From a virus (Monodnaviria > Loebvirae > Hofneiviricota > Faserviricetes > Tubulavirales > Inoviridae), in IMG/VR virus record IMGVR_UViG_2654587728_000001: DNA of 7,369 nt. The stretch is one strand, 5' to 3'. The position numbers were made by a program, and so were the translations under genes. Under the pieces are notes generated by a model. The model saw only the letters and a list, made by a program, of their open reading frames with translations. It searched no databases and was not told where the DNA came from. This document shows, piece by piece, positions 3,073 through 4,542 of this stretch; position 1 is the first letter of the stretch, and every line of letters starts with the position of its first letter.

Positions 3073-4542
3073 TCAGGACCGAAGAACAATAAAGAATGAA
3101 AGCATGGAGCCAATCAGCGTCATAATCACCCTGAAAGTGGCCCTGACTTCATCGGTATCAAGCAGCACACAAAAAGTATCCAGTTGATAATCTTTATTCC
3201 AGATATTGAATGTAAAGACAGGACACTGCCCCCGTGGAATTGTCAGTGAAAAATCACGCGCAGAAGGCCACATATTCCACAATGGAGAAATGAATGATGA
3301 AGGCTCAGGAGATGAAATATCAGGCGTATCCACTGAAGGTGCAGTGCCAAAGTCATTTGACACAGTCACGTTAACATTTACCGTAGCATTACCTGTTACA
3401 GTGGTACTGCCAGAACCTGTTCCGACTCCAGCTCCTGTACCGCTACCCGTTCCAGTGCCTGTACCCGTACCACTGCCTGTACCCGTACCGCTGCCCGTAC
3501 CTCCAACGGGCTTAAAACCGGGGTCAATAACAGGAGGGGTATATTTACCTCCAGAATTGCTGGTATCACCACCTGGTGTCGGAGGAATAGCAATAACACC
3601 AGATTCTGTAAAACTTGCAGAATCACCGATGCGGAGGTCTACCGTAGAACGATAATTGTCTACGTCAGCAGAGGAATATTTCAATAAAAACGAAGATATC
3701 CCGCTATATTCAGAGAGGCCATCTAATTGTTCAGTCAGCCCGTTAAGAATATCTGCAATATCCTGAGATGCCAGATTATTTCCAGAGAAAGAAGGCACGT
3801 GGAGAGACGATGAGAATGGATTTTCAGTGGTTGCTGCCTCACAAGTAGAATTACCGTCAGAATAAAACAGAACCTGACCGTTATCACAAAAAACAGAATC
3901 CTCACTTAACGTTACTGACCAGAATACAAACGAACTCTGGGACCAGGAACCTCGAAAATAATAAGCGTAGTAGAATCTGTACCACTCATTATCAACGTCA
4001 CTCTTCGGAGGAGTATAATAAGACGACTGAAGCGAGGATTTTTCTTCAGGAGGTAAGCACTGAATAACCCGCGCAGCAGCAGAAAACGGCGAAGTACTGG
4101 TAACGTAGCAATTATCAAACCCGCCATGCCAGGCCTTGACACCCGCACTCATGGCTGGAGTGTAATAAAACGCGTTATAGCCGTTTTTATCTAAAACCAA
4201 TTTTGCCACCTCCTCAGCAAAAGGTTTTCCTGCGGCATAAATTCCAAGACTGACTGTAGTTACACCAAGACCGTAAGCCAGAGTACTCCACGACATTGCT
4301 GAAGCAGAAATCCCGGCAGATGCAGCATAATTTGATGCAAAAGACGCTGCCGCACGTGAATATCCTGATAACGTTGCCGAAATAGATGAGGCGCTGGCCC
4401 CCATTGCAGATAATTTGCGATTAATAATACCGGACAATTCAGAAGAAAATGTTGTGGTAGTCAGTGTCGCTGTTTCAGCACAGGCGTGATTTGTTAACAA
4501 AACGTACAATAGCGACACAGAAATATTTTTCAAAAAACTCAT
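3073..4542 (-). CDS. gIII: Minor coat / adsorption protein pIII-like (signal peptide, Gly/Thr/Ser-rich linker, C-terminal membrane anchor)
   Basis: 489-aa ORF with signal peptide [22 protein letters not shown], linker [32 protein letters not shown], and a C-terminal hydrophobic anchor ([19 protein letters not shown]). Position between gVIII and gVI is canonical. Confidence 0.8.
3411..3502. repeat. Tandem degenerate 18-bp repeats encoding the Gly-Thr/Ser linker of pIII
   Basis: Adjacent copies CCTGTACCCGTACCACTG (3458..3475) and CCTGTACCCGTACCGCTG (3476..3493), with degenerate copies upstream. On the coding strand they give GTGSGTG repeats. Confidence 0.7.

Follow-up and report, generated by a model that had tools for sequence, protein, structure and literature searches.

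The 7,369-nucleotide stretch of DNA analysed here as a whole (the window), virus record IMGVR_UViG_2654587728_000001 of IMG/VR (Inoviridae), is a complete inovirus prophage integrated at dif in an Escherichia coli chromosome, and its open reading frame (ORF) 3073-4542 on the minus strand very probably encodes the pIII-type tip protein of this dif-integrating inovirus. Repeat-number variation of Gly-rich g3p linkers is already known from the phages IKe and UPphi. Three findings are new: the N region belongs to a family that lacks annotation and divides clearly into a conserved and a hypervariable part, linker lengths span an unusually wide range, and the repeat array that encodes the linker coincides with a recombination joint.

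Architecture of a probable pIII-type protein

We assign the ORF to the pIII type because of its gene position, with the coat gene on one side and the pVI-pI-pIV genes on the other, and because of the architecture of its product. Synteny and the family matches of neighbouring genes thus bear out the original prediction, read from the letters of the window, that this gene occupies the pIII position of a filamentous prophage. Along its 489 residues, the protein divides as follows.

3073-4542, minus strand: gene for the pIII-type minor coat/adsorption protein, 489 amino acids (aa), ATG start (ORF; synteny)
4477-4542, minus strand: signal peptide, residues 1-22, recognised by inspection (K5, a hydrophobic core, and A20-C21-A22 before E23, then ETAT)
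4087-4446, minus strand: D1, conserved Ala/Ser-rich, predicted helical region, residues 33-152 (composition, conservation, structure prediction with AlphaFold 2, AF2)
4228-4290, minus strand: conserved hydrophobic Gly/Ala segment, residues 85-105 (invariant W85, A89, Y90, G91, L92, G93, G105)
3898-4086, minus strand: hypervariable aromatic-rich segment, residues 153-215, inside a predicted beta-rich domain (about 136-236)
3508-3897, minus strand: D2, residues 216-345, with the invariant pair C219...C234 and a Pro-rich end (alignment, AF2)
3406-3504, minus strand: Gly/Thr/Ser linker, residues 347-379 (33 aa, of which 31 are G, T or S)
3444-3501, minus strand: core 18-bp tandem array, two A units and a truncated B unit (Tandem Repeats Finder)
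3076-3405, minus strand: C-terminal domain, residues 380-489 (C-terminal matches to PHROG families)
3169-3225, minus strand: Cys-bracketed loop C440-C458, a predicted beta-hairpin (invariant C440, P441, C458)
3079-3141, minus strand: C-terminal hydrophobic anchor, residues 468-488 (Kyte-Doolittle; predicted long helix)

All family members align with an equivalent A-x-A type signal end, and the linker, present in every one of them, has the lowest sequence entropy in the protein. With a Kyte-Doolittle 19-residue maximum of 1.98, the anchor is the sole segment of the protein above 1.6. From about residue 320-390 to the C-terminus, the window protein and four of its homologs match the C-terminal ends of unannotated PHROG families of 420-546 aa; the matches of the C-terminal 110-170 aa are to phrog_7187 (E = 1.9e-19), phrog_3942 (E = 1.5e-13), phrog_11232, phrog_20392 and phrog_815. 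These matches indicate a C-terminal module common to other pIII-sized phage proteins, with which the N region is not shared.

A conserved Ala/Ser-rich region precedes a hypervariable aromatic-rich segment

Ala and Ser occupy 23 of the 40 positions at residues 41-80 (57%, compared with 20.5% for the remaining residues; binomial P = 3e-7), while Trp, Tyr and Phe make up 12/30 at residues 181-210 (9.8% elsewhere; P = 1e-5). Both compositional features that had been predicted, Ala/Ser enrichment after the signal peptide and Trp/Tyr-rich segments, are therefore real, but the accompanying label of residues 30-100 as low-complexity is misleading, since this is the best-conserved part of the family. 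Residues 33-119 are 82% identical to a second E. coli allele and 44% identical to the Salmonella homologs, whereas the aromatic-rich residues 141-215 reach 47% and 9%, respectively (8-15% among the homologs covering 141-215); over residues 153-215, the second E. coli allele is 46% identical. Between the window and one divergent locus (L013), the ratio of nonsynonymous to synonymous substitution rates (dN/dS) is 0.05 for residues 33-152 and 0.24, the highest of any region, for 153-215, with dS saturated.

In an eight-sequence alignment, most invariant positions lie within residues 38-152, including W85, A89-Y90-G91-L92-G93, G105, N120-G121 and P129-A130-M131. D2 is moderately conserved, and its invariant residues are C219, D220, G222, C234, N267, D293, V294, R298, P336, P337 and V338. 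Given its conservation, low dN/dS, invariant residues and predicted helices, the Ala/Ser-rich region is probably a constrained, helical domain rather than filler. Evolution is fastest in the aromatic-rich segment, which we propose as the specificity determinant. Within D1, the hydrophobic segment 85-105 has a Kyte-Doolittle 19-residue maximum of 1.19 in the window protein and of 1.62-1.76 in the Salmonella homologs, a value exceeded only by the anchor; at 1.19, which falls short of the usual threshold, the N region of the window protein was judged not to contain a further transmembrane segment.

The N region appears to be a family of its own

Searches of Pfam, PHROGs and NCBIfam covering residues 1-320 returned no family, and in NCBIfam two homologs gave only sub-threshold, linker-driven matches. 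Relatives of the N region were limited to two E. coli clusters among 5.8 billion proteins; phmmer against 1.84 billion representatives gave six matches, all to the protein's own family, and a profile search gave 13, all hypothetical proteins of E. coli or Salmonella enterica. In IMG/VR the family is represented by 13 loci, two of which (L016 and L017) carry more divergent alleles; L016 has E. coli flanks. Neither the full-length profile nor the D1 profile found the family among species representatives (one genome per species). The C-domain alone, used as query of a protein homolog search, gave no matches, probably owing to a word-index limitation. Against PDB sequences, the single sequence retrieved only linker-driven spurious matches (such as lysis proteins and fusions of G-protein-coupled receptors), and profiles of the N region and of the C-domain matched nothing. 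As judged from sequence, the N region is thus a family of its own in E. coli and Salmonella prophages.

AF2 modelling on an 11-row alignment (mean predicted local distance difference test score, pLDDT, 53.8) placed helices at residues 32-119 (66-129 being of low confidence) and, at about 136-236, a beta-rich domain (pLDDT 62-84, means of 10-residue blocks), together with a hairpin at the C219...C234 pair and helices at 259-300. When this model was compared with PDB and BFVD by Foldseek, nothing matched at E <= 0.001, and no g3p structure appeared in any list. Homology to the N1 (TolA-binding) or N2 (pilus-binding) domains of Ff, IKe and If1 was not found by sequence or fold search, the latter with a low-confidence model, and the same holds for CTXphi pIII N1 by sequence, fold and phmmer search (1.84 billion representatives). 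With so weak a model, the negative results exclude close fold identity and not remote identity. The expectation that the N region would be unlike the N1 domain of Ff phages is nevertheless sustained by structure prediction, homology search and fold search alike. As to the original suggestion of a receptor or co-receptor other than F-pilus and TolA, lack of N1 homology does not exclude the use of TolA; CTXphi pIII binds TolA through a domain whose fold differs from that of Ff N1.

Linker length varies widely among near-identical prophages

The original prediction had placed tandem 18-bp repeats at 3411..3502 and suggested that they could expand or contract. An 18-bp tandem array is indeed present, on the minus strand and with coordinates that differ by a few bases: Tandem Repeats Finder reports period 18, 3.2 copies and 90% matches at 3444-3501 (score 88). 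On the coding strand, the array is built from unit A, GGCAGY GGTACG GGTACA (encoding GSGTGT), and unit B, GGCACT GGAACG GGTACR (GTGTGT).

We defined linker length as the stretch between KPVGG and TTVTG and compared 19 independent sequences of the window-type allele (9 complete genomes, 7 IMG/VR contigs and 3 short-read lineages). These display 12 lengths, namely 31, 67, 73, 75, 79, 85, 91, 93, 99, 103, 109 and 115 aa, so that expansion and contraction of the array is borne out by the unit numbers of relatives. The mix of A and B units also varies between arrays, and 27 of the 27 arrays examined are in frame. The window and two other loci (L005 and L010) have no difference in 1029+333 flanking nucleotides and yet carry linkers of 31, 91 and 73 aa, respectively, which implies that the array changes much faster than point substitutions accumulate. 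Smaller steps are seen as well, with one 6-bp sub-unit separating L009 from L010, and one A-to-B unit replacement, at equal linker length, separating the tandem copies of strain S21EC. More distant arrays are (GT)n of varying length in L013-15, about 45 GT in L016 and (GTGTTT)n in L017, and in Salmonella the linkers show more degeneracy and hardly vary in length. A phase-variable on/off contingency switch was considered and rejected: units are of 6 or 18 nucleotides (nt) and all 27 arrays are in frame. Because the units are multiples of three, the variation modulates length rather than phase. Neither of the two outcomes named beforehand as contrary to the original prediction, clear N1/N2 homology and an invariant repeat number, was observed when both were checked.

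The array coincides with a mosaic boundary

Compared with the window, L013-15 are 92-93% identical over 214-3501 (pIV, pI, pVI, the pIII C-domain and the array) and 66-72% identical from 3434 onward (the pIII N region and the coat gene); the array is the point at which megablast matches end and at which the mosaic boundary lies. Within pIII, the C-domain is 95% identical to the L013-15 allele and the N region 46-78%, and dS between the window and L013 rises from 0.28 in the C-domain to above 2.3 in the N region. This jump in identity and dS indicates that the C-domain travels with its assembly partners and the N region with the upstream module, and we infer that the shared GT array provides the homology for module exchange.

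Prophage context

Every long ORF of the window lies on the minus strand, the canonical inovirus layout, and the gene order is identical in all relatives (Rep_trans, 111-aa ORF, coat, 56-aa ORF, pIII ORF, DUF2523, Zot, secretin). The remaining features of the window are as follows.

5626-6852, minus strand: Rep_trans replication initiator
5281-5616, minus strand: phrog_14411 protein, 111 aa
4852-5100/5160, minus strand: major coat protein gene, in the 82-aa form per RefSeq relatives (phrog_2186 and a weak Phage_Coat_B match)
4547-4717, minus strand: 56-aa ORF directly upstream of the pIII gene
2768-3055, minus strand: pVI-like gene (DUF2523, Ace-like), partner of the pIII C-domain (Pfam PF10734, phrog_974)
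1698-2756, minus strand: pI/Zot assembly ATPase gene (Pfam Zot, E = 1.3e-22)
442-1701, minus strand: pIV secretin gene (phrog_1012, E = 1.8e-116; Pfam Secretin)
155-182, minus strand: dif-like site at the prophage/chromosome junction, with 1 mismatch to E. coli dif

The dif match was obtained with none of 200 shuffled sequences, and positions 1-182 of the window are chromosomal sequence in other E. coli strains. Left of dif, positions 1-154 are 86-100% identical to part of an annotated site-specific integrase gene in many E. coli genomes, and the source strain therefore has an integrase-bearing element adjoining dif. In complete genomes (L001, L004, L023, L025, L026), the same prophage adjoins hipBA, often as 2-3 head-to-tail copies; tandem copies at dif are as expected for XerCD-dependent inoviruses. 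The pIII gene was found in 27/5426 complete E. coli genomes, and no deposited phage record resembling the window or its pIII was detected among 50,697 phage records (megablast of the window; tblastn of pIII and of its C-domain).

The coat gene is annotated at 249 nt in relatives. The 56-aa ORF, which fills a gap between the coat gene and gene III that contains no gene in Ff, is kept in all relatives (WP_000107046.1), and its best family match is a weak one to HTH_40 (E = 0.038). Two more short tandem repeats lie in the pI/Zot gene, at 2022-2082 (period 25, 2.4 copies) and 1945-1964 (period 9, 2.2 copies), both in the part encoding the hydrophobic, Pro/Ser-rich middle of pI.

The pIII-pVI-pI-pIV module, 99% identical, also occurs away from dif, between ybiB and hcxB (L003 8837-14707; L024 16822-25340), where it is joined to another replication gene (a 2004-nt 'replication endonuclease') and to an adjacent IS110-family (RNA-guided) transposase; this location may reflect an alternative integration route. 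Strain S21EC (L025 9086-24063) provides a third combination, with the same structural genes next to a 'phage/plasmid replication domain' protein, SSB and a helix-turn-helix regulator; here the replication gene measures 1158 nt in one tandem copy and 1125 nt in the other, and one linker unit differs as well.

A proposed mechanism and its rivals

By analogy with Ff, IKe and CTXphi, the C-domain would anchor the protein in the inner membrane and cap the virion together with pVI, and the N region would be displayed on the tether. The hypervariable part would then set primary-receptor specificity, and the conserved part would serve a step that is itself conserved, for example folding or the engagement of a co-receptor (Tol). 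The 18-bp units, with their 6-bp GGN-ACN sub-units, would be gained and lost through replication slippage or unequal exchange, favoured by single-stranded rolling-circle replication and by tandem prophage copies; as multiples of three, they would change the length of the tether and never the reading frame. GT arrays common to diverged phages would provide homology at which a module of N region and coat gene recombines with one of C-domain, pVI, pI and pIV.

Several points weigh against this picture. The prophage is known here from its sequence, and virion-tip location, role in infection and receptor are drawn by analogy; membership in the pIII type rests on synteny and a motif rather than on demonstrated homology. 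No significant similarity to any experimentally characterised pIII was found, the C-domain included, with no PDB sequence match at E <= 10. The C-domain model (mean pLDDT 54.5) places strands at 442-447 and 450-455, with low confidence, before the anchor helix, and hhalign pairs the C440-C458 loop with the C354-C371 loop of f1 at E = 0.15, below significance. Both AF2 models are of low confidence, which makes the negative fold searches weak evidence. Positive selection on the aromatic-rich segment is not demonstrated by a dN/dS that stays below 1 under saturated dS. Length variation may be neutral, since the naturally longer Gly-rich region of IKe brought no advantage, according to the passage of PMC7307601 that cites Bruno and Bradbury 1997. 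Finally, the 31-aa allele is seen only in short-read assemblies.

These last two points each open onto a rival explanation. The linker length polymorphism could be real and yet neutral, a by-product of an unstable repeat in which any length above a minimum works and which has no role in host range or infectivity; with the IKe precedent, the broad and unstructured lengths among near-identical phages (67-115 aa, plus 31 aa), and copies that are usually identical inside one genome, we consider this slightly better than an even bet. Selection on length might be read into the lack of any allele under 31 aa and of any frame-breaking one in 27 arrays, but this is expected anyway for units of a multiple of 3 nt in an essential gene. 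The very short array of the window (3 units, 31 aa) might, for its part, be a short-read assembly collapse of a longer gene in the source strain. The exact 489-aa protein is confined to short-read assemblies (drafts GCA_001265675.1 and GCA_001267345.1; Logan ERR10767148, ERR2367828 and ERR2367680), all 9 of the complete genomes sampled carry linkers of 85-115 aa, and contigs and partial proteins often stop at or just before the repeat (P0001, P0002; 5' ends of L007 and L012). Against this, the window array has 17 31-mers missing from the arrays of its closest relatives, notably across an A(T) unit abutting the terminal unit, and de Bruijn collapse cannot create new k-mers; in addition, the contigs that different assemblers gave for this allele are unbranched and cover the entire phage. 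The idea that an L005-like array had simply collapsed in a de Bruijn graph was rejected on the k-mers that those arrays lack, and a collapse of any kind seems doubtful, if possible. The short allele is thus probably real, while the number of identical A units in it may be undercounted. Many database entries for the protein are labelled 'partial', and the repeat breaks short-read assemblies. As the repeat breaks or may shorten such assemblies, annotated lengths of this pIII gene are unreliable without long reads.

Other readings concern the function of the protein. D1 could be a new kind of entry module, membrane-active or Tol-engaging and unrelated to N1, with the aromatic beta domain setting specificity and the GT array acting as a head-swapping recombination joint; it is the invariant hydrophobic Gly/Ala segment (W85, AYGLG, G105) and its transmembrane-like hydropathy in Salmonella homologs that suggest this, and we regard the full combination as unlikely. 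We give slightly less credit to the N region being homologous, at great divergence, to known receptor-binding domains of pIII (Ff/IKe N1-N2 or CTXphi N1), with classical use of TolA and a pilus, even though its layout is N1-N2-like (conserved part first, variable part second, paired cysteines, Gly-rich tether), TolA use is widespread among filamentous phages (PMC4266046) and the contrary fold searches depend on a low-confidence model. It is very unlikely that the lysogen exposes the protein chiefly as a host-fitness or virulence factor, with the prophage defective and no working adsorption protein. Such a role has been suggested for CUS-1 puvA, a gene that sits at the pIII position of another dif prophage of E. 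coli and affected in vivo fitness (PMC4266046), and it would fit the lack of a matching phage record and the occurrence of the prophage in human clinical and stool isolates. However, strains share a full and intact set of morphogenesis genes at 99% identity, tandem copies typify active dif-integrating inoviruses, D1 and the C-domain are under strong purifying selection, and the structural module has been swapped between different replication modules, implying horizontal spread.

The conserved and hypervariable parts of the protein are separable for testing, and proteins that are otherwise identical come with tethers of 31-115 aa, a natural series suited to experiments on tether length versus infection. 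The receptors of dif-integrating filamentous prophages of pathogenic Enterobacteriaceae, CUS-1 and Ypfphi included, are still unknown, and an attachment-protein family is defined here for one E. coli/Salmonella group.

Comparison with known filamentous phages

Overall, the architecture matches that of pIII from Ff, IKe and CTXphi. The window protein resembles pIII of the Ff phages (f1/M13/fd) in gene position, signal peptide, exported N part, Gly-rich repeat-encoded tether, C-domain and paired cysteines. Assembly of f1 needs a hairpin that is pinned by C354-C371 and lies ahead of the transmembrane (M) helix (PMC10175506); the C-domain of the window protein likewise ends in a Cys-bracketed loop followed by a predicted transmembrane anchor. 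It differs from f1 in its size of about 110 aa instead of 150 aa and in having no predicted C1/C2 helices. The N region is without sequence or detectable fold similarity to that of Ff, and its conserved N-terminal part is predicted to be helical and Ala/Ser-rich, whereas that of Ff is beta. There is one long linker instead of two, of (GT/GS)n rather than (E)GGGS.

With CTXphi OrfU (pIII) and CUS-1/Ypfphi puvA, the window protein shares integration of the dif/XerCD type, a replication gene of the Rep_trans type and neighbours of the Zot and Ace-like (DUF2523) types; in all of them the N domain is unrelated to Ff N1 (PMC4266046). Many filamentous phages have N domains of this kind, and no receptor is known for Ypfphi, a related dif prophage (PMC4266046). 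Unlike CTXphi, CUS-1 and Ypfphi, the window phage encodes its own secretin, and its N region has no detectable homology outside its own E. coli/Salmonella family (1.84 billion representatives).

The closest parallels for the linker are UPphi and IKe, in which, as here, Gly-rich repeat number is the main difference between the attachment proteins of near-identical phages. Among 229 UPphi genomes, 95 gene III variants were found, which differ mostly in repeat number (PMC7307601), and the IKe passage of the same source reports such variation for IKe g3p as well, the extra length conferring no advantage. UPphi also integrates in tandem at dif in Enterobacterales (PMC7307601); its repeat is GGGES rather than GT/GS units, and its N domains are unrelated. 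Relative to both UPphi and IKe, the range observed here is much wider, from 3 to about 17 18-bp units, and the array coincides with a mosaic breakpoint.
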